Of a stretch of 37,882 nucleotides of DNA, positions 1 to 37,882 are shown in pieces. This stretch comes from a virus. Lineage: Duplodnaviria; Caudoviricetes. Below the pieces are notes generated by a model that worked only from the letters and a program-made list of their open reading frames with translations, had not been told where the DNA came from and did not search any database. The DNA lies in the IMG/VR virus record IMGVR_UViG_3300043437_000215, positions 1 to 37,882 of that record; one strand, given 5' to 3'. The translations under genes and the position numbers were made by a program. How positions within the stretch are numbered: position 1 is the first letter of the stretch; each line of letters opens with the position of its first letter.

Positions 1-1711
1 CTGATATGCCAATGTCAACTGCGATTAAATCACCCGCCTCGCAAATGAATACCTCGTTCGTTATTGTATACCAAGCTGGTTGACCGGGCACAGCTAAATC
101 ACTGCCAGTAATAAATCTTGTTTCTAATAAATTCAGACCGGCATCAAATCGCTTAATCATTAACTTAACTTGCCTGCCAGCTGCAAATGCAATCGGCAAA
201 AATGTAACAGGGTCTAAGTATTCATCTAATACAAGCCCGGCATTAACCGTGTATATGCCCGGATTTGCAACGCTGTAATACTCATACGTGCCCGGCACAG
301 GCTGCGTGAAATTATTTGGATTTATAACTGGGTCAAGCCAAATGAAGTAATGAGCCAACAGCCCTGAAAGAGTATTCTGAGTTGGAGCATTAACAACAGA
401 GAATTGATTTACAATTTGGTTTGCAAGTGTATTATCAAACCTTAATGTTCCAGTGGCCGTTGATGGATTGAATCCCTCAAAGAAAGATTGAAGCGAATTA
501 GGATATCCACTCAGCCAATTAGCAGATACAAGCTCGTTGCGATAAGTGCCATTGTAAATTGTATTGCCTACGCCGTAAGGGTCATATCCGTTAGCCGTTG
601 CGGTATTCGCTGCTTGGCTGCCAGTCCAATTGGATTGGATAATCACTCCATTAGTCTCATAGCCGGTATTGTTAAAAACAACAATGTCCTGAATGAGATT
701 GGTGTCGAATATTATCTCGCTTGTTTTAAGGTTCAATACATTCGATGTATTGCACTCACCTAAGAATCCAAATGTCTCAGTCCTGAAGCCTCTGAATGGT
801 GTCTGCGTAAATTCGCAAAGCGTGTCTCCATTATCACATTGACCTACTTCTAAGAATAATTCATTGCCGAAGTCAGCCGCTTGGTATAGCCTGCTTGTAT
901 CGAACTTCATCTCAATCTCCGGCTGATCGTAAAGGTTAGCCGATGCCCCTGATTGTTGGAAGTATGCAATAGGCTCGATGCGTAGTAATGGCCTTCCATT
1001 AGATTGCTTCTCGAATCCCATGCCGAGGTTTAGCTTTGACCGCATCGCTGCGTATAGGCTTTCAAAGTCTGCAAGTATCTCAACGTTTGACTTGATTCGA
1101 ATCGATTGCCCATTGGTGTAGAATGGCACATCGTTCTGCGGATATGTAGCGGCAAAGTAATTAGAATCAAAGTCGATTAAACCATCGCTCATGCAATTCA
1201 CAAGATGAGCAAACGTATCATAAACCGTATAAGCGTATGCTGGGTCTGGGTAGATTATCACACCCGGATTGAACACATAAAGCGGCACTGCTGTTGGCGG
1301 CGTTATGGGTACGCCGTTCTTTGATGTGGTAAGGCGCAGCGAGAATGGTATAGCCTTATTGTTGTTTATCTTGGTGCTGAATGTTTCATCATAGAGCTTC
1401 GTTTTAACTTGACACCTATCGAGCAAAAAGTTCGATTCGGTTACAATGATATAGCCATCGACCAACTTCTCCCAAGTACCCGAGTTGCAAAGGTATTGCA
1501 CAGTCACGCGCACAAGCTCGCAGTAACCCGATGTTGCAAGTTTATTGTAAAGATAGCCGAACACATCGCCGCCAAAGATTAACTCATTGTCGAACGATAC
1601 TATGCGGGCTCCGATGTTACTGTCCTCGGTTATGTTTATGCCGAAGTCCTCAGGGTTAAGCGGCTGGCCTCGATCGAGATTGTCGATTAAAAACTTAATT
1701 TCTACTGCCAT
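1..1711 (-). CDS. Tail tip/baseplate-region structural protein, allele A (runs off the left edge of the window)
   Basis: Homologue of 34888-36960 at offset 35,249. ATG at 1711 overlaps the tape measure stop. Absent from the ORF track because there is no stop in the window. Confidence 0.8.
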   Translation of the reverse strand, partial: MAVEIKFLIDNLDRGQPLNPEDFGINITEDSNIGARIVSFDNELIFGGDVFGYLYNKLATSGYCELVRVTVQYLCNSGTWEKLVDGYIIVTESNFLLDRCQVKTKLYDETFSTKINNNKAIPFSLRLTTSKNGVPITPPTAVPLYVFNPGVIIYPDPAYAYTVYDTFAHLVNCMSDGLIDFDSNYFAATYPQNDVPFYTNGQSIRIKSNVEILADFESLYAAMRSKLNLGMGFEKQSNGRPLLRIEPIAYFQQSGASANLYDQPEIEMKFDTSRLYQAADFGNELFLEVGQCDNGDTLCEFTQTPFRGFRTETFGFLGECNTSNVLNLKTSEIIFDTNLIQDIVVFNNTGYETNGVIIQSNWTGSQAANTATANGYDPYGVGNTIYNGTYRNELVSANWLSGYPNSLQSFFEGFNPSTATGTLRFDNTLANQIVNQFSVVNAPTQNTLSGLLAHYFIWLDPVINPNNFTQPVPGTYEYYSVANPGIYTVNAGLVLDEYLDPVTFLPIAFAAGRQVKLMIKRFDAGLNLLETRFITGSDLAVPGQPAWYTITNEVFICEAGDLIAVDIGIS

Positions 1712-2633
1712 GTGTATCGCGAATCCCCGCCGTTAATGTTTACAATCATTTGCTTGCCTGCCATTGTCTTGTTCAGCCTGTCGAGCTTGCGCTCCATAGC
1801 CTTGCTATTCAGCGAAGCGTTAACCGTTATGCCATCGCGCTTGTTGCTCATCGCATAGCTGAGTATGGCAGGGCGCACGTAACGCTCATCTATCAATCTC
1901 TTGAATGCCGCGCTCGATGTGTTAATCGCATCCAGTTCGCGCCGGTTGCGCATTACTGAGTTCTTATTAACCACGAACTCACCACGCTCAGCTTCAATCA
2001 ACGTTCCGCCTGCCTCATGGCTGCGCCCGCCTACCATACCACCCTTCTTGAACTTAGGGATAGGCGTTGCTGCAATGATGGCAATCTGAGCCAAGCCTGA
2101 AGCAAGGGCGATGGCTTTCTCAACTACCGTGACAGCCTTGGCAACAGCGGCAGCCGTGCCAATCGTTGCATTAAATATAGCCGCCGCCTTTTCGGCTTTC
2201 GCTTGCCGTGTCTTTTCGGCTGCAACCTTTTGCTCTGTTCTTATGCGTAAGGCCTCGAGCTTGCGTTGCTTTTGAGCTTCGCTTATTGTGCTGCCCTCGA
2301 TAGCCGCCTTCTCGGCTTCATTTGCCGCATTGATTTCCTCGATTCGCTTTTGCGATTGAATGCCTTGCAGCTCAATGATGCTTCCAAGTGTATCAGCAAC
2401 CGCCTGCGCAATCTCAAGCGCTTGGTCGATTGCTTCATCGCGTGACTTCTTACGCTCATCGCGGATGGCTTGCTCGGTCTCGGCGTTGATGAGTTTTATC
2501 TCGCTAGCATTTTCTTTAGCATCTTCAATTCGCTTTTTAGATTCGAGTTGTATAATCTCAATCCTTCTTTCGAGCGATGTGCCCTCTGCAATCTCTAATG
2601 TCTTAAGCGCATTTATCTGAGCATCGATGCCAG
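1..2633. repeat. Terminal redundancy, copy A (diverged duplicate of 35250-37882)
   Basis: Position 1 'ctgatatgccaatgtcaactgcg' matches 35250, and the window end '...gcatcgatgccag' matches 2621-2633. The offset is 35,249 throughout (ORFs 488/35737, 1702/36951, 2360/37609). Confidence 0.97.
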
Positions 2634-4206
2634 CGATTGTTAGCTTGCTTCTTTCCTCGGCTGCCTTCTCTGCTTCTTGCTGTGCCTTCTCCGCTGCTTC
2701 CTTTTCCTTTGCTGCTTTGTCATCAATTGCCTTTTGGTCAATCTCAGCAATACTCTTTGTCGCTTGCTCTTTGATTGCTAATATAGCATCTTGAAGTTTC
2801 TTTTCTTCAGCACTTCCGGCTGCAAACCTTGATTCTAAAAACGCCTTTTCAAGTTCTTGAATCTTAGCGTTGCTCTCGCTTAGTATCTTTTCGCGTTCAT
2901 CCAATTGCGCCTGCAAAGCATCGGTCTCTAACTTAGCTAAGTTTTCGCGTGCCTTGGCTACATCTTCAGCGGCTTTCTTTGCAGCCTCAGCTCGTTTCTT
3001 TGCTTCCTCTTGTGCTTTCTCGCTTGCTTCACGTTCTGCCTCATTGCGAATTACGGTAATCTTCGCGCTTGCATCCAACACGGCGTTAACCGCTGATTGC
3101 TGCACTTCCTTAGCCTTTGCCTTTTCTTCTTCGCTTAACTGGCTTAATGTTCCGGCTTTCTTCGTATAGTCAGCTATGATGGCACGGTTAGCATTTATGA
3201 CCGCTTGCTCGCGTTGTATCTCGAGCGCAACCGTTGAACGCCCCGCCGACTTCTCAATATCGATTTGCCGCTCAATCCTTTCAATCGCTGCATCGGAAGC
3301 GGCCAGCTGCTTCTTACTGGCAGACTCAAAAGCAGTCGCAGCGCGATCGGCTTCATCAGATGCGCCTACCCATTCTTTGATTGTATCAACCACACCGCCG
3401 ATCGCGTTGCTTACCTCTTTGAATCCCGGTATCGAGTTCTCCAGAGCGCGCTTCACTTTATCGAAGTTCTCGACTAAGGCAATCAAGCCAATCACAAGCA
3501 ATCCAATCCCAGTAGCGGCAAGTGCAATTCTAAACGCTTTCAATGCGCCTGTGGATGTACCCACAACCGTTGCATAAGCAGCTTGTGCATTTGTCAGCAC
3601 TAAGGTCTTAATCTTGCTCTCCTCAAGCAATAGGTTAGCCACTTGCTGCACGCCGTTAGCGATGGCAGTCGCAGCCTGCACCTTCAGCAATGCCTTCTGC
3701 AAATCTTCGCTCTCTGAGCCGAACAACGCCGCCGCGCCCTGAGCAATCTCGAAGCCAGCCGCGAGCCCTTGCGTGGCTTGCACTGCCGCATCGAACTTGA
3801 ACGTATCGCTTGCAAGGTTAGAAACGCGAGCGCGAGTATCGCCAATTTGGTCTTCGAGCCGTGCGGCTTCGCGCTCTAATTGCCTGAACTGCTCTGTTCC
3901 ACCTTTGCCCGCTTCCTCGAGTGCGTTGAGTTCATTCTTTAAGCCACGCAACACCCTTGTTAGCGGCACGGTCTTCTTATTCAAATCTTCAAAGGACTTG
4001 TTCTGATCGGCCAGGGCTTTCTTAACTTCATTGCCTGAGAACGCAGCTGCGATGCTTTTGCCAGCTGTCTTATAGGTATCGGCTACCTTCTTCGAGCTTT
4101 CCTGTGCCGATGCCACCACGGCATCATTGGCCTTGTTAACTTCGTTGACCGTTGCCTTCAGGCTCGTTGCCTCGGCTTCGTAGATAATCTCAACCTTTAC
4201 CGCCAT
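1702..4206 (-). CDS. Tail tape measure protein
   Basis: 834 aa, Ala/Glu/Lys-rich helical sequence, hydrophobic segment ALAATGIGLLVIGLIALV, C-terminal 'PKFKKGG..GG.SH..GG..IEAE.GE.VVN' motif. Lies directly downstream of a frameshifting chaperone gene. Confidence 0.9.
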   Translation of the reverse strand: MAVKVEIIYEAEATSLKATVNEVNKANDAVVASAQESSKKVADTYKTAGKSIAAAFSGNEVKKALADQNKSFEDLNKKTVPLTRVLRGLKNELNALEEAGKGGTEQFRQLEREAARLEDQIGDTRARVSNLASDTFKFDAAVQATQGLAAGFEIAQGAAALFGSESEDLQKALLKVQAATAIANGVQQVANLLLEESKIKTLVLTNAQAAYATVVGTSTGALKAFRIALAATGIGLLVIGLIALVENFDKVKRALENSIPGFKEVSNAIGGVVDTIKEWVGASDEADRAATAFESASKKQLAASDAAIERIERQIDIEKSAGRSTVALEIQREQAVINANRAIIADYTKKAGTLSQLSEEEKAKAKEVQQSAVNAVLDASAKITVIRNEAEREASEKAQEEAKKRAEAAKKAAEDVAKARENLAKLETDALQAQLDEREKILSESNAKIQELEKAFLESRFAAGSAEEKKLQDAILAIKEQATKSIAEIDQKAIDDKAAKEKEAAEKAQQEAEKAAEERSKLTIAGIDAQINALKTLEIAEGTSLERRIEIIQLESKKRIEDAKENASEIKLINAETEQAIRDERKKSRDEAIDQALEIAQAVADTLGSIIELQGIQSQKRIEEINAANEAEKAAIEGSTISEAQKQRKLEALRIRTEQKVAAEKTRQAKAEKAAAIFNATIGTAAAVAKAVTVVEKAIALASGLAQIAIIAATPIPKFKKGGMVGGRSHEAGGTLIEAERGEFVVNKNSVMRNRRELDAINTSSAAFKRLIDERYVRPAILSYAMSNKRDGITVNASLNSKAMERKLDRLNKTMAGKQMIVNINGGDSRYTWQ

Positions 4207-12801: not shown

Positions 12802-13912
12802 ACTGCTCGATTGCTTTGAATATTTGGTAAACGACTTGAGGCACTATGGCGTTTCCTCCGGCTTTGATGGATTCGTTTCGCCACTTAGAAAAGGTAATTC
12901 CGTCCAGTCCGGAGGAAAGCCCATCATTTCGAGAACAAATTGGGGATTGAGTTGGGAATTGTAACCAACCTGGTTGTGAATTACCATTGCTAAATCTTCT
13001 TGTCTGCCCTTGTCTTTTCTGTTCTTCCAATACGCTTCTTTGTCTGAGTGTTTTGTCAAAGAAGTTGTCGGTGTCGGCAACATTGTTACCCATTTGGCTA
13101 TGTGTTCCTCCAGATTCCCTTTGTTCCTGTTGGCTAAACTTTCGGAGTTCAGGTCGCATCCATTCACCTGGTTGGCTCTCGGTGTCGGCAATAACCCCAT
13201 CGCCATTGCTCGGCAAAGGGTTACACTGTGCATCGAGCCCTCCTTCACTTGACTGCTCTTCATCGTTGCCGTTGCGTTGGTTGAGTCCATTGCTGTCGGG
13301 GTTGGGAGTAGGCCGTTCATCGCTAAGTCCTTCAATGGTGCGCTTCCGTTGTGTCCTTGGTTGCTTATTATTCTTCCCGATTGCGTTATTTGCCGAGGAG
13401 GGTTCTGCATCATGTCCATTGCCTGAGGCGTAGGCAACAAACCAGACTCTGTCTCTTCGGTGCGGTGCGTTGACGGCACAAGCTGGAAGTACATACGGTT
13501 GTACTTCGTACCCTTCAGCTTCCAAATCAGCCTGCACCTCGTGGAAGACCAACCCTCCTGACCAATTAACAAGCCCGAAAACGTTTTCGCCCACAACCCA
13601 ACGCGGCCGAATTTCTCGAATCGCTCTAAGCATCTCCGGCCAGAGGTGTCGCTCATCTTCTTTTCCAAGTCGCTTTCCGGCCATTGAGTATGGCTGGCAA
13701 GGGAATCCCCCTGTGAGGATGTCAATTCTGCCTCTGTGAATAGTGAAATCTGTTTTGGTAATGTCTTCATAACTGATTGCATTTGGAAAGTGATATTTTA
13801 ATACTTTTTGCCCGAATGAATTCCACTCGCAATGGAATATGTTCTCCCATCCCATCCATTCGGCAGCGAGGTCAAAGCCGCCAATTCCGCTAAATAGTGA
13901 TCCGTGTGTCAT
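12764..13912 (-). CDS. DNA (cytosine-5)-methyltransferase, large (alpha-like) polypeptide lacking motif IX
   Basis: Motif I SLFSGIGG, IV GGFPCQPYS, VI ENV, VIII HRRDRVW, X GNAIVPQV. The central region is low-complexity. Confidence 0.9.
   Translation of the reverse strand: MTHGSLFSGIGGFDLAAEWMGWENIFHCEWNSFGQKVLKYHFPNAISYEDITKTDFTIHRGRIDILTGGFPCQPYSMAGKRLGKEDERHLWPEMLRAIREIRPRWVVGENVFGLVNWSGGLVFHEVQADLEAEGYEVQPYVLPACAVNAPHRRDRVWFVAYASGNGHDAEPSSANNAIGKNNKQPRTQRKRTIEGLSDERPTPNPDSNGLNQRNGNDEEQSSEGGLDAQCNPLPSNGDGVIADTESQPGEWMRPELRKFSQQEQRESGGTHSQMGNNVADTDNFFDKTLRQRSVLEEQKRQGQTRRFSNGNSQPGWLQFPTQSPICSRNDGLSSGLDGITFSKWRNESIKAGGNAIVPQVVYQIFKAIEQYETQAIPRYFHQ
12844..13782 (-). CDS. Nested out-of-frame C5-methyltransferase small (beta-like) polypeptide with motif IX and four LPTP units
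   Basis: 312 stop-free codons in the +1 frame inside the MTase gene; ends with LNPQFVLEMMGFPPDWT (motif IX-like). Confidence 0.75.
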   Translation of the reverse strand: MQSVMKTLPKQISLFTEAELTSSQGDSLASHTQWPESDLEKKMSDTSGRRCLERFEKFGRVGLWAKTFSGLLIGQEGWSSTRCRLIWKLKGTKYNRMYFQLVPSTHRTEETESGLLPTPQAMDMMQNPPRQITQSGRIISNQGHNGSAPLKDLAMNGLLPTPTAMDSTNATATMKSSQVKEGSMHSVTLCRAMAMGLLPTPRANQVNGCDLNSESLANRNKGNLEEHIAKWVTMLPTPTTSLTKHSDKEAYWKNRKDKGRQEDLAMVIHNQVGYNSQLNPQFVLEMMGFPPDWTELPFLSGETNPSKPEETP

Positions 13913-25538: not shown

Positions 25539-25628
25539 TTATTGCGTGGTTAGATTATCTAATCCGTCTTGGGTCAATAAGTCCTCATCCGCTTGGGATA
25601 GCAGGCTCATTAACCCGATTACGGGTTT
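25539..25628 (-). other. Predicted -1 frameshift site (A AAC CCG) and 27-aa capsid C-terminal extension
   Basis: -1 frame reads VIGLMSLLSQADEDLLTQDGLDNLTTQ* to TAA at 25539-25541. Alternatively an independent 23-aa ORF from the ATG at 25610. Confidence 0.6.
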
Positions 25629-26665
25629 GCGATTTCAACGCAGTTCACGTAGTTAACGCCAGCATACTTGTCAGAAGACTCGTAGATGTCAGTTGGAAGA
25701 GTTACAATCTTTCCAGTTGTAGTCAACACAATCGACAAATTACCACAATCATCCTTCATGGTCAAATCTACTGGTACACCTGCTGGTGTGAACACCAAGG
25801 TCTTTGAGTAGTTTGAACCAGCCACAGGCGTAATGCCCTGATTCCAATCAGCCAAGTTAAATGATAACCACTGGATTGCTCCGGCAGTAGTTACCAAGTT
25901 CTTAAGCTGCGAACCTTGAGCCGCTGCAACGCGAGAATCGTAAGCGAATCCGAAACCGTTCTGCTGGCTAATCGCCAACAAGTCGATGCCGAACTGAGTG
26001 CAGCAACCAGCTTGCACAGCATTAGCATAACGCTGCATCTCAGCACCGCCAAATACCACAGGCGCACCTGGATAGTTAGCCATGCGAGTTGCTTGAAGGA
26101 TGTCAGCAAGTGCGAACTCGTTCAATGCTTGCCCGCCAGTTTGGCGAGTAGCAACGCGCAAGCAGTCACCGCTTACAGTGTAGTACCCTGACACCTCAGT
26201 GCCCCACGTTCCGATGTCAGCAACAGCCTGAACAGCGGCAGCAGAAGCAACCTTGCGGTCAAGTACATCCATCAAACGCATTACCGACTCAAGCACATAG
26301 CGAGAGTTCTCTTGGCAATGACGAGCGATGTCAGCAGCATTGATCAGCTGAGATGCTTGGTACGTATCAGTCACATCCAACGTATACGTGGTTGTGCTGT
26401 CTCCGTAAGTGTTCGTTGAGGTACAAGCTAAGATGTCACCTTCTGTATCAACTTCGGTCTCAGGTAAACGCTGAATCCAACGAGCTTGTACTGTTTTTAA
26501 TTTACCGCCGCCGGGTGCAACCTCAGTGCGGATTAGTTTTGCGTTTTCAGGCGAAAGCAAGAACTCTAAGAAAGGCAATTGCTCACGCTGTCCAACTTCG
26601 ATGAAGAGTTCGCTAAGTGACATTTGCACATTAGGACACTCCGATAGAATGCGAGATATAGACAT
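25619..26665 (-). CDS. Major capsid protein
   Basis: 348 aa, downstream of portal/minor head/scaffold, with its own promoter and terminator. Assigned mainly by synteny and size. Confidence 0.75.
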   Translation of the reverse strand: MSISRILSECPNVQMSLSELFIEVGQREQLPFLEFLLSPENAKLIRTEVAPGGGKLKTVQARWIQRLPETEVDTEGDILACTSTNTYGDSTTTYTLDVTDTYQASQLINAADIARHCQENSRYVLESVMRLMDVLDRKVASAAAVQAVADIGTWGTEVSGYYTVSGDCLRVATRQTGGQALNEFALADILQATRMANYPGAPVVFGGAEMQRYANAVQAGCCTQFGIDLLAISQQNGFGFAYDSRVAAAQGSQLKNLVTTAGAIQWLSFNLADWNQGITPVAGSNYSKTLVFTPAGVPVDLTMKDDCGNLSIVLTTTGKIVTLPTDIYESSDKYAGVNYVNCVEIANP

Positions 26666-34891: not shown

Positions 34892-36960
34892 GGAAGTAGT
34901 TTGTTTGAACGTAGCTCGAATTGCGCGGCCTTGCGCATCACTGACTCAATCTGAATGTTTTTAATGTAGGTGTCAATCACTGCGATGCTGTCATCCCTGC
35001 GACCGAGTTGTATCGGCTTGGATGTCTCCGATGTAATGGCGTTAATCTCTGCCATCGTGAGCGGGCGCTTGAACTTGTAGAGGTAGGCTTGCACATCATC
35101 GATGTTCACTGGGTCAAGTGTTTGTGGTGTGAATGGTTCGCCAATAATTGAAAAGAATGAGAATGCCGATGGTAGCGTAGTATTTTGAAATCCGCTTCCG
35201 AATCGTAAGAATCGTTGAATAACATTAGGCAATGGGGCTGTGGCGGTTGCTGATATGCCAATGTCAACTGCGATTAAATCACCCGGCTCGCAAATGAATA
35301 CCTCGTTCGTTATTGTATACCAAGCTGGTTGACCGGGCACAGCTAAATCACTGCCAGTGATAAATCTTGTTTCTAATAAATTCAGACCGGCATCAAATCG
35401 CTTAATCATTAGCTTAACTTGCCTGCCAGCTGCAAATGCAATCGGCAAAAATGTTACAGGGTCTAAGTATTCATCTAATACAAGCCCGGCATTAACCGTG
35501 TATATGCCCGGATTTGCAACGCTGTAATACTCATACGTGCCCGGCACAGGCTGCGTGAAATTACTTGGATTTATAACCGGGTCAAGCCAAATGAAGTAAT
35601 GAGCCAACAGCCCTGAAAGAGTATTCTGAGTCGGAGCATTAACAACAGAGAATTGATTTACAATTTGGTTTGCAAGCGTATTATCAAACCTTAATGTTCC
35701 GGTTGCAGTTGACGGATTGAAGCCCTCAAAAAATGATTGAAGGGAATTCGGATATCCGCTCAGCCAATTAGCAGATACAACCTCGTTTCTAAATGGTCCA
35801 TTATAAATGCTATTGCCAACGCCGTAAGGGTCGTATCCTCGAGCTCTTGCTGTATTGACTCCATAGAACCCATCCCAGTTGCTCATAATAACAACGCCGT
35901 TTGTTTCATATCCGGTATTGTTAAAAACAACAATGTCCTGAATAAGGTTAGTGTCAAATATTATTTCGCTTGTTTTCAAGTCAAGCACATTCGATGTATT
36001 GCACTCACCTAAAAATCCAAATGTTTCAGTTCTGAATCCTCTGAATGGTGTCTGCGTAAATTCGCAAAGCGTGTCACCGTTATCGCATTGACCTACTTCT
36101 AAGAACAATTCATTGCCGAAGTCAGCCGCTTGGTATAGCCTGCTTGTATCGAACTTCATCTCAATCTCTGGCTGATCGTAAAGGTTAGCCGATGCGCCCG
36201 ATTGCTGGAAGTATGCAATAGGCTCGATGCGTAGCAATGGCCTTCCATTAGCTTGCTTCTCGAATCCCATGCCGAGGTTTAGCTTTGACCGCATTGCTGC
36301 GTATAGGCTTTCAAAGTCTGCAAGTATTTCAACATTTGATTTGATTCGAATCGATTGCCCATTGGTATAGAATGGCACATCGTTCTGCGGATATGTAGCG
36401 GCAAAGTAATTAGAATCAAAGTCGATTAAACCATCGCTCATGCAGTTTACCAAATGAGCAAAAGTATCATAAATCGTATATCCGTATGCTGGGTCAGTAT
36501 AGAATGAAACGCCGGGATTATAAACATAAAGCGGCACAGCTGTTGGCGGCACTATCGGTACGCCGTTCTTTGATGTTGTAAGGCGCAGCGAGAATGGTAT
36601 AGCCTTGTTGTTGTTTATCTTGGTGCTGAATGTTTCATCATAGAGCTTAGTCTTTACTTGGCACCTATCGAGCAGAAAGTTCGATTCGGTTACAATGATG
36701 TAGCCATCGACCAACTTCTCCCAGGTACCCGAGCTGCAAAGGTATTGCACGGTCACGCGCACAAGCTCGCAGTAACCAGATGTTGCAAGTTTATTGTAAA
36801 GATACCCGAACACATCGCCGCCAAAGATTAACTCATTGTCGAACGATACAATGCGGGCTCCGATGTTGCTGTCCTCGCTAATGTTGATGCCGAAGTCCTC
36901 AGGGTTAAGCGGCTGGCCTCGGTCGAGATTGTCGATAAGGAATTTTATTTCTACTGCCAT
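34888..36960 (-). CDS. Tail tip/baseplate-region structural protein, allele B (690 aa)
   Basis: First gene after the tape measure; 'LRIEP..YF' hub-like segment; aromatic- and Asn-rich. Confidence 0.75.
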   Translation of the reverse strand: MAVEIKFLIDNLDRGQPLNPEDFGINISEDSNIGARIVSFDNELIFGGDVFGYLYNKLATSGYCELVRVTVQYLCSSGTWEKLVDGYIIVTESNFLLDRCQVKTKLYDETFSTKINNNKAIPFSLRLTTSKNGVPIVPPTAVPLYVYNPGVSFYTDPAYGYTIYDTFAHLVNCMSDGLIDFDSNYFAATYPQNDVPFYTNGQSIRIKSNVEILADFESLYAAMRSKLNLGMGFEKQANGRPLLRIEPIAYFQQSGASANLYDQPEIEMKFDTSRLYQAADFGNELFLEVGQCDNGDTLCEFTQTPFRGFRTETFGFLGECNTSNVLDLKTSEIIFDTNLIQDIVVFNNTGYETNGVVIMSNWDGFYGVNTARARGYDPYGVGNSIYNGPFRNEVVSANWLSGYPNSLQSFFEGFNPSTATGTLRFDNTLANQIVNQFSVVNAPTQNTLSGLLAHYFIWLDPVINPSNFTQPVPGTYEYYSVANPGIYTVNAGLVLDEYLDPVTFLPIAFAAGRQVKLMIKRFDAGLNLLETRFITGSDLAVPGQPAWYTITNEVFICEPGDLIAVDIGISATATAPLPNVIQRFLRFGSGFQNTTLPSAFSFFSIIGEPFTPQTLDPVNIDDVQAYLYKFKRPLTMAEINAITSETSKPIQLGRRDDSIAVIDTYIKNIQIESVMRKAAQFELRSNKLLP

Positions 36961-37882
36961 GAATATCGAGAATCCCCTCCGTTAATGTTTACAATCATTT
37001 GCTTCCCTGCCATTGTCTTGTTCAGCCTGTCGAGCTTGCGCTCCATCGACTTGCTATTCAGCGAAGCGTTAACCGTTATGCCATCGCGCTTGTTATTCAT
37101 CGCATAGCTGAGTATGGCAGGGCGCACGTAACGCTCATCGATTAATCGCTTGAATGCTGCGCTCGATGTGTTAATCGCATCCAGTTCGCGGCGGTTGCGC
37201 ATCACTGAGTTCTTATTCACCACGTACTCGCCGCGCTCGGCTTCAATCAACGTTCCGCCTGCCTCATGGCTGCGCCCGCCTACCATACCACCCTTCTTGA
37301 ACTTAGGGATGGGCGTTGCTGCAATGATGGCAATCTGAGCCAAGCCTGAAGCAAGGGCGATGGCTTTCTCAACTACCGTGACAGCCTTGGCAACAGCGGC
37401 AGCCGTGCCAATCGTTGCATTAAATATAGCCGCAGCCTTTTCGGCTTTCGCTTGCCGTGTCTTTTCGGCTGCAACCTTTTGCTCTGTTCTTATGCGTAAG
37501 GCCTCGAGCTTGCGTTGCTTTTGAGCTTCGCTTATTGTGCTGCCCTCGATAGCCGCCTTCTCGGCTTCATTTGCCGCATTGATTTCCTCGATTCGCTTTT
37601 GCGATTGAATGCCTTGCAGCTCAATGATGCTTCCAAGTGTATCAGCAACCGCCTGCGCAATCTCAAGCGCTTGGTCGATTGCTTCATCGCGTGACTTCTT
37701 ACGCTCATCGCGGATGGCTTGCTCGGTCTCGGCGTTGATGAGTTTTATCTCGCTAGCATTTTCTTTAGCATCTTCAATTCGCTTTTTAGATTCGAGTTGT
37801 ATAATCTCAATCCTTCTTTCGAGCGATGTGCCCTCTGCAATCTCTAATGTCTTAAGCGCATTTATCTGAGCATCGATGCCAG
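35250..37882. repeat. Terminal redundancy, copy B
   Basis: Aligns with 1-2633 without net indel. Confidence 0.97.
36951..37882 (-). CDS. Tape measure protein C-terminal part (start lies beyond the right edge)
   Basis: Near-identical to 1702-2633; a few amino acid changes (EFVV/EYVV, MSNK/MNNK, KAM/KSM, YTW/YSW). Confidence 0.9.
   Translation of the reverse strand, partial: GIDAQINALKTLEIAEGTSLERRIEIIQLESKKRIEDAKENASEIKLINAETEQAIRDERKKSRDEAIDQALEIAQAVADTLGSIIELQGIQSQKRIEEINAANEAEKAAIEGSTISEAQKQRKLEALRIRTEQKVAAEKTRQAKAEKAAAIFNATIGTAAAVAKAVTVVEKAIALASGLAQIAIIAATPIPKFKKGGMVGGRSHEAGGTLIEAERGEYVVNKNSVMRNRRELDAINTSSAAFKRLIDERYVRPAILSYAMNNKRDGITVNASLNSKSMERKLDRLNKTMAGKQMIVNINGGDSRYSWQ

Follow-up and report, generated by a model that had tools for sequence, protein, structure and literature searches.

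A probable −1 frameshift at the end of a phage major capsid gene and a predicted docking peptide for a trimeric fiber

The locus described here raises the question of whether a phage major capsid gene is extended by recoding at its 3′ end and, if so, what the added peptide would bind. The window, that is, the whole stretch of DNA analyzed, is virus record IMGVR_UViG_3300043437_000215 in its full length of 37,882 nucleotides (nt). It is a near-complete phage record in which terminase, portal, tape-measure, and endolysin genes are present and the late genes lie on the minus strand, where all of the main features discussed below are located. An open reading frame (ORF) of 348 amino acids (aa) at 26665 to 25619 ends in GCA AAC CCG TAA, the stop being at 25621 to 25619. 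A first-pass annotation had claimed that a −1 frameshift at this point appends a docking peptide that is shared with a tail protein and serves one accessory protein. This core reading was supported by the conservation of frame and signal, the coding evolution of the extension, the loss of the ATG in most relatives, a family-level motif match, and a complex model. Recoding at the capsid end is judged highly probable and, given recoding, docking of a 164-aa predicted fiber is judged likely; the mechanism as a whole, comprising both, is considered probable.

The gene upstream of the extension is identified from its structure model as encoding an HK97-fold major capsid protein. The model of the 348-aa product had a predicted local distance difference test (pLDDT) value of 90.4, and its top matches in Foldseek were all phage capsids with the HK97 fold (best E, 5e-10). 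No Pfam or PHROG match was found for the protein, and PDB sequence searches with it gave nothing meaningful.

Slip site and frame at the capsid gene end

The heptamer A AAC CCG was found at 25628 to 25622, directly before the TAA stop, where the first-pass annotation had placed it, and its conservation was assessed over the junctions of related loci. Capsid loci were taken from five scans, of which 80 of 206, 80 of 183, 78, 80 of 188, and 80 of 98 matches were kept. The resulting 282 records include the window, and many of them represent the same contig; 276 reach the capsid end, and three were too short and were dropped. The analysis was made on 173 distinct junctions with capsid identities of 61 to 100%. 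The peptide motif lay in the −1 frame in 135 of these, in frame behind a TGA in 5, and in the +1 frame in 3, and it was absent from the remaining 30.

All 135 of the −1 junctions contained C-CCR, compared with just 4 of the 30 peptide-less capsid ends, and the expectation of a slippery site conserved in relatives was thereby borne out. The full heptamer, which had been proposed as the signal, holds for 128 of the 135 (A_AAC_CCR); the other seven end in GTC CCG stop, leaving C-CCR as the invariant core. A stop stands right behind C-CCR in 128 of the −1 junctions, heptamer and stop occur together in 121, and no junction has neither. When the comparison was limited to Asn-Pro endings, all 120 peptide-bearing ends used A_AAC_CCR, as against 3 of the 18 that lack the peptide; among 242 internal Asn-Pro pairs, 5 used it.

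A −1-frame TGA at 25637 to 25635 precedes the 31-aa open frame (25634 to 25542), and any shift is therefore confined to the last four capsid codons. At loci L104 and L109 a −1-frame stop leaves only the final two codons for the shift, and in seven −1 junctions CCG is separated from the stop by one codon. A strict tandem-heptamer slip was found to be insufficient on account of the seven GTC CCG stop junctions and the two-codon room at L104 and L109, and a strictly stop-dependent slip was insufficient on account of the seven junctions with the intervening codon. Slippage of the RNA polymerase at AAACCC, rather than of the ribosome, would shift the frame as well. Short A and C runs are present and the sequence evidence consists of assembled contigs only, but the runs are just three bases long, seven junctions have no A run, and the stem described below lies at a fixed spacing of 5 to 6 nt that is typical of ribosomal signals. 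Polymerase slippage was thus deemed extremely improbable.

The history of the junction was followed on a tree of 64 representative capsids, from which the last six residues were left out and which was rooted at the midpoint. The basal branches are all of the −1 form, and the TGA and +1 forms make up one clade each. Over the 64 rows the presence of the peptide switches state 12 times, and a single loss of the peptide was rejected (p-AU, 0.015), with the number of true losses left uncertain in that a few junction types may have been spread by recombination. Eight independent pairs were available on well-supported branches, and in these the signal follows the peptide in about six and opposes it in none (sign test, p of about 0.03). 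Across the relatives, the four elements (signal, stem-loop, frame, and peptide) are retained as a set and lost as a set. In distant relatives (capsid identity of 30 to 37%; 28 locus records inspected by eye), no peptide was seen in any frame. At L304, L323, and L328, whose capsids have 30% identity, the capsid stop is followed after five bases by the start of the next ORF, which is in the +1 frame, and no terminator intervenes.

The extension peptide and its RNA

As first claimed, the −1 frame adds 27 codons (25622 to 25542) and a stop (25541 to 25539) and ends right at a terminator-like stem that starts at 25540. The extension, 25622 to 25539 in total, translates into three hydrophobic-hydrophobic-x-Q/E repeats with acidic spacers. 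Among 100 distinct peptides the length was 24 to 28 residues, and the repeats were spaced eight or nine residues apart. Single-site changes were counted along a spanning tree of 65 distinct 27-codon sequences, and the synonymous and nonsynonymous changes numbered 117 and 78 in the −1 frame versus 55 and 139 or 27 and 172 in the other frames. This pattern of codon change indicates that the extension evolves as a protein. Permanent fusion of the motif to the capsid was found in none of 270 capsid proteins.

The peptide could instead be a free microprotein made from the in-frame ATG at 25610 or by reinitiation and acting as a chaperone, cap, or competitor for the fiber trimer; translation from this ATG only was the outcome that the first-pass annotation had set against its own reading. 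The window has the ATG, but an ATG occurs within the first seven peptide codons in only 20 of the 135 −1 junctions and any of ATG, GTG, and TTG in 37, which argues against a free microprotein. The candidate starts also fall within the 5′ arm of the strong conserved stem, and they lie in a strong stem in the +1 clade as well. Furthermore, a microprotein could do without C-CCR and without a fixed −1 frame, whereas both of these track the peptide. Its support from the derived clades is that the first codon behind the stop in the seven TGA-clade records is ATG in one and ATA in six and that GTG is present in all three +1 junctions, which have no re-pairing option. A free microprotein was considered improbable.

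The window does contain a small inverted repeat around the capsid stop, which was initially described as a hairpin whose loop holds the stop. This repeat is complete in only 17 of the 135 −1 junctions and was rejected as the frameshift stimulator. The conserved stem-loop lies downstream at 25616 to 25571. This 46-nt element begins 5 nt past the slip site, inside the peptide codons, and has a folding energy of −23.4 kcal/mol (z, −4.54; 1 of 200 shuffles was as good). A z of −2 or lower was obtained for 104 of 106 distinct −1 sequences versus 12 of 120 capsid-internal controls, and the stem starts 5 to 6 nt past C-CCR in 78 of the 106 folds and 3 to 4 nt past it in 26. For covariation a gap-free alignment of 100 of the 106 sequences was used, the six that differ in length or in the position of the stop being left out. 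Both-sided changes were seen in four of the five consensus outer pairs, and the covariation score of the named structure was 0.466 versus at most 0.273 when it was slid; the outer helix was 89% paired and the inner just 69%, all of these conservation and covariation counts being inflated by relatedness among the sequences. The stem is kept in the TGA clade (4/4) and in the +1 clade (3/3). The low folding z of the peptide-less ends (27 of 28) is no usable control because the terminator falls inside that stretch. The first peptide codons are variable because they are paired in the stem with the codons of repeat 2. Judged by its covariation, the stem-loop is the likely frameshift stimulator. The locus family thus combines a conserved motif that permits re-pairing at −1, a conserved 3′ structure at about 5 to 9 nt, and an overlapping frame under coding selection whose own start is not conserved, as in programmed −1 frameshifting.

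The conserved stem with its compensatory changes would also fit a stretch kept as an RNA element, for example a stability or termination hairpin, the open frame being a by-product or a relic of a copied tail gene end. The peptide is indeed dispensable in 30 of the 173 junctions. On the other hand, the synonymous excess is seen in the −1 frame only, the third repeat is conserved although the stem does not reach it, and the codon choice before the stop tracks the peptide. There is also a separate terminator downstream: an intrinsic terminator-like hairpin with a U tract at 25540 to 25502, right behind the extension stop, which was assigned by consensus match and was seen also in the relatives inspected for it. 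A role as RNA only was rated very improbable.

The two derived placements of the peptide were considered separately. In a pattern scan, all seven TGA-ending capsid records carried the peptide in frame, all with TGA-A and all in one clade; an eighth match was not a capsid. Genome-wide reassignment of TGA in this clade was rejected since 4 to 8 long ORFs per locus end in TGA. Readthrough is the likeliest explanation, with reinitiation as the alternative. In the +1 clade (three junctions reading AAC TCG TAA), the peptide is conserved among L098, L270, and L272, and no codon is able to re-pair. By analogy, the shift may occur as at antizyme UCC_UGA or yeast GCG_UGA, or a GTG start may be used, both being candidates. 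By hand count, the first repeat starts 32 nt past the Asn codon in the −1 form, 33 nt in the TGA form, and 31 nt in the +1 form, which places each derived form one insertion or deletion (indel) away from the −1 form.

A shared tail motif and a candidate fiber partner

The 557-aa protein of the tail gene block (34891 to 33218) is encoded two genes after the tape-measure gene (phrog_3336) and likely sits at the tail tip, as judged from this gene order and weak leads. The leads obtained in the Atlas were DUF2460 and CBM_4_9 at 0.75 to 0.76, and no Pfam, PHROG, or PDB match was found for the protein. The protein ends in the sequence quoted in the first-pass annotation, and its last 23 residues (33289 to 33221) carry the same three-repeat motif, which was kept in 62 of 62 distinct C termini with the rest of the protein going down to 31% identity. 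A profile of the tail-protein ends matched 96 of the 100 extension peptides at an iE below 0.01 (window, 0.0013). Over 142,171 six-frame segments, this profile retrieved 86 tail ends, 84 capsid extensions, and two others, which were again one of each. The reverse match in the window alone, with the extension profile against six frames, was not significant (iE, 2.3). The resemblance first noted between the extension and the C terminus of the 557-aa protein therefore stands at the family level but not for the window by itself. In a search with the tail end, which bears on fused forms as well, only tail homologues were among the best 120 of 511 matches. At L098 and L158, a leucine-rich repeat style was seen at both the capsid and the tail sites.

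The 164-aa protein (20079 to 19585) was picked as the partner before modeling for what we took to be a likeness to fiber N termini. Its N-terminal module, some 36 aa long, is conserved, and its beta-sandwich head is variable. Head residues 37 to 164 aligned with trimeric fiber heads (Z of 9.1 with a root mean square deviation [rmsd] of 2.9 over 115 residues; Z of 8.9 with an rmsd of 2.9 over 108 residues), and the beta-sandwich fold of a fiber head was thus found for the protein; Foldseek gave an E of 0.01 only. The likeness was to avian reovirus sigmaC (2jjl), the Dettilon tailspike C terminus (6f7k), PSA gp15 (6r5w), and the TP901-1 receptor-binding protein, and it is limited to the head; PDB sequence searches gave no solved chain like the N-terminal module and no meaningful match for the peptide. 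A match to phrog_19691 (virion structural protein) was found in 31 of 124 relatives' fiber proteins. The variability of the head sequence suggests a receptor-binding role for the predicted fiber, the middling Z scores speaking for the fold and not for a receptor. The fiber module was present in 208 of 208 locus records reaching the endolysin gene, of which 39 are without the capsid peptide; the co-occurrence is therefore no proof of a link, and it fits a core use at the tail.

Three copies of the 164-aa protein were modeled with the 31-aa −1-frame peptide. The complex scored 0.84, and the best of three controls scored 0.02. Of 157 solved complexes, 116 came up to the mark applied to this score, as did 2 of 215 mismatched pairs; these figures are only roughly valid here. 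The runs shared at least 96% of their contacts, and the partner pLDDT was at least 81. In the model, peptide residues 11 to 13, 19 to 21, and 28 to 29, belonging to the three repeats, contact residues 4 to 6 of three different fiber subunits. The three-repeat peptide is thus predicted to bind the base of the fiber trimer, which the model supports rather than demonstrates. A structural likeness remembered by the predictor may lie behind the score; no like complex was matched by sequence.

A real frameshift could also deliver a peptide that binds some other target, such as another virion protein, a metal ion, or the capsid interior. The predicted binding comes from one model, the 164-aa protein was the only one modeled among candidates that include 684-, 361-, and 144-aa proteins, the acidic spacers could bind cations, and the side on which the capsid C terminus emerges is assumed. 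However, the model passes the mark, the three repeats fit three subunits, and the conserved part of the fiber is its N terminus. In addition, phenylalanine-rich repeat peptides are paired with a divergent fiber N terminus in L172 (2512 to 2625), L282, and L284, all of one lineage. A different target was considered unlikely.

Several observations concern the fiber itself. The phenylalanine-rich peptide with its divergent fiber N terminus is a possible natural specificity switch. Loci L058, L064, L076, L086, L114, L116, and L161 have two adjoining fiber genes that share the N-terminal module but differ in the head, and mixed fibers could share sockets there. The fiber N-terminal module (20079 to 19960) was matched by features, at 0.91, to a cluster with DUF685 in 35% of its members (Spirochaetota), which is a lead to a wide distribution of the module.

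Proposed mechanism and relation to known systems

In the proposed mechanism of frameshifting and fiber docking, the ribosome would pause at the stem 5 to 6 nt downstream, aided by the A-site stop codon. The common step would be movement of the proline tRNA from CCG or CCA to CCC; where possible, the asparagine tRNA would move from AAC to AAA, and reading would resume at GTA or ATA. At GTC CCG stop junctions the proline tRNA alone could move, and junctions with an extra codon before the stop would have to use the heptamer. The long form would co-assemble as a minority of the capsid subunits with the peptide outside, and the peptide is predicted to wrap the trimer base, each repeat pairing with residues 4 to 6 of one fiber subunit. 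The same fiber likely docks on the 557-aa protein through the counterpart peptide at its C terminus. The tail site, which all relatives examined have kept, would be the core use, and display on the head would be optional and repeatedly lost. Among several hundred subunits, even a low shift rate would provide a few sockets. More tentatively, a single three-repeat peptide might be a threefold socket for interchangeable trimeric fibers, built in at the tail tip and supplied to the head in amounts set by recoding, whose display there was kept through single-base indels by three routes (−1 slip at C-CCR, UGA readthrough, and +1 at UCG-UAA without re-pairing) over the same hairpin.

A number of points weigh against this mechanism. 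The frameshift, its efficiency, the display, and the binding are read from sequence and a model, and the outward side of the capsid C terminus is an assumption. C-CCR persists in four peptide-less ends, and the −1 slip does not explain every placement since the +1 clade has no re-pairing codon. The loci are related and exchange modules, and hence the counts overstate independence. The complex model covers the capsid peptide alone, and the first four residues of the modeled peptide precede the slip site. Finally, the motif slips poorly in Escherichia coli, and its efficiency may be low or may hinge on the stop, the stem, or the host tRNAs.

According to the available part of the source (PMC5009743), frameshift-extended major capsids are known for T7 and T3 (gene 10A/10B), Lactobacillus phage A2, Listeria A118 and A500 (−1), and PSA (+1), and capsid extensions across phages are indifferent to −1, +1, or in-frame access. 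As in the T7, T3, A2, and Listeria capsids covered there, a longer second product would arise here through recoding in the last part of the major capsid gene. The known extensions mostly form an Ig-like domain (PMC5009743, same part), whereas all 100 peptides here, at 24 to 28 residues, are not extensions of the T3 or A2 kind; they are linear three-repeat peptides that recur on a tail-block protein and are predicted to hold a separate fiber. Also unlike the capsid frameshifts in that part of PMC5009743, the slip core here is C-CCR beside the stop, with the stimulator stem within the peptide codons. The same part lists +1 shifts at the codon before a stop for Listeria tsh ([AAA] CCC_UGA), antizyme (UCC_UGA), and yeast (GCG_UGA). 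These resemble the +1 clade in having a proline or serine codon before the stop, here UCG UAA with a 3′ stem; they differ from the main family, which shifts −1, and the antizyme cases are eukaryotic, so that the likeness to the +1 clade is a lead.

Bacterial signals of the X_XXY_YYZ or Z_ZZN type with a 3′ structure, as given in the accessible portion of PMC4066793, are resembled here in the heptamer of 128 of the 135 junctions and in the stem at 5 to 6 nt. In the E. coli tests reported in that portion, A_AA.C_CC.A was below threshold even with a strong pseudoknot, and C_CCA and C_CCG gave 1.8 to 3.6 times background. These motifs are thus among the weakest in E. coli, and seven junctions here have the tetramer and stop only; the portion of PMC4066793 at hand gives no sign of a stop placed directly behind the motif in those tests. 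In the portion of PMC13742148 at hand, the words "frameshift" and "motif" are absent. A literature search that covered few subscription journals found no report of a recoded capsid peptide docking a fiber.

Capsid frameshifts are already known, and what is new here is a short candidate socket with a named, testable partner; the role of the added capsid pieces in known cases is usually vague. If the mechanism holds, one small fiber gene would arm both tail and head, and a few silent codon substitutions could adjust the number of head fibers or turn their display off. The family offers more than 100 natural versions of a slip site with almost no activity when tested in E. coli, and through them the roles of the stop, the stem, and the host proline tRNAs are directly testable. 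A 24-residue trimer-binding tag would serve as a simple display tool. Gene callers overlook the recoded extension altogether.

As to the host, no cultured relative was matched among 50,697 annotated phage records, and the single match in a bacterial genome was a 5-kb contig within a metagenome-assembled genome (MAG) labeled Bacteriovoracaceae. TAnnTTTG boxes occur upstream of several window genes and Shine-Dalgarno sequences are not evident, a combination that we take to point to Bacteroidota; the MAG match is to another phylum. RNA runs gave contigs of relatives only, at low depth and in some cases across the junction, with no strand or level and with DNA as a possible source.

Among the remaining features of the window, a 690-aa gene and the tape-measure end are present at both record ends (1 to 1711 and 35250 to 37882; 1702 to 4206), and the copies differ at many residues, which suggests from sequence comparison a chimeric or strain-mixed terminal overlap of the record. 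Beside the lysis genes, a 209-aa ORF (18547 to 17918, minus strand) has a PAS-like start, a histidine-kinase-like phosphoacceptor helix, and a weak PHROG kinase match. Between the portal gene and the tail block (32593 to 31126, minus strand) lie a methyltransferase gene (Pfam) and a glycosyltransferase-like gene, which may modify the virion surface. At 13912 to 12764 (minus strand), a DNA cytosine methyltransferase-like gene is covered by two long overlapping ORFs of 382 aa and 312 aa (the latter at 13782 to 12844), which lie on one strand but in different frames.
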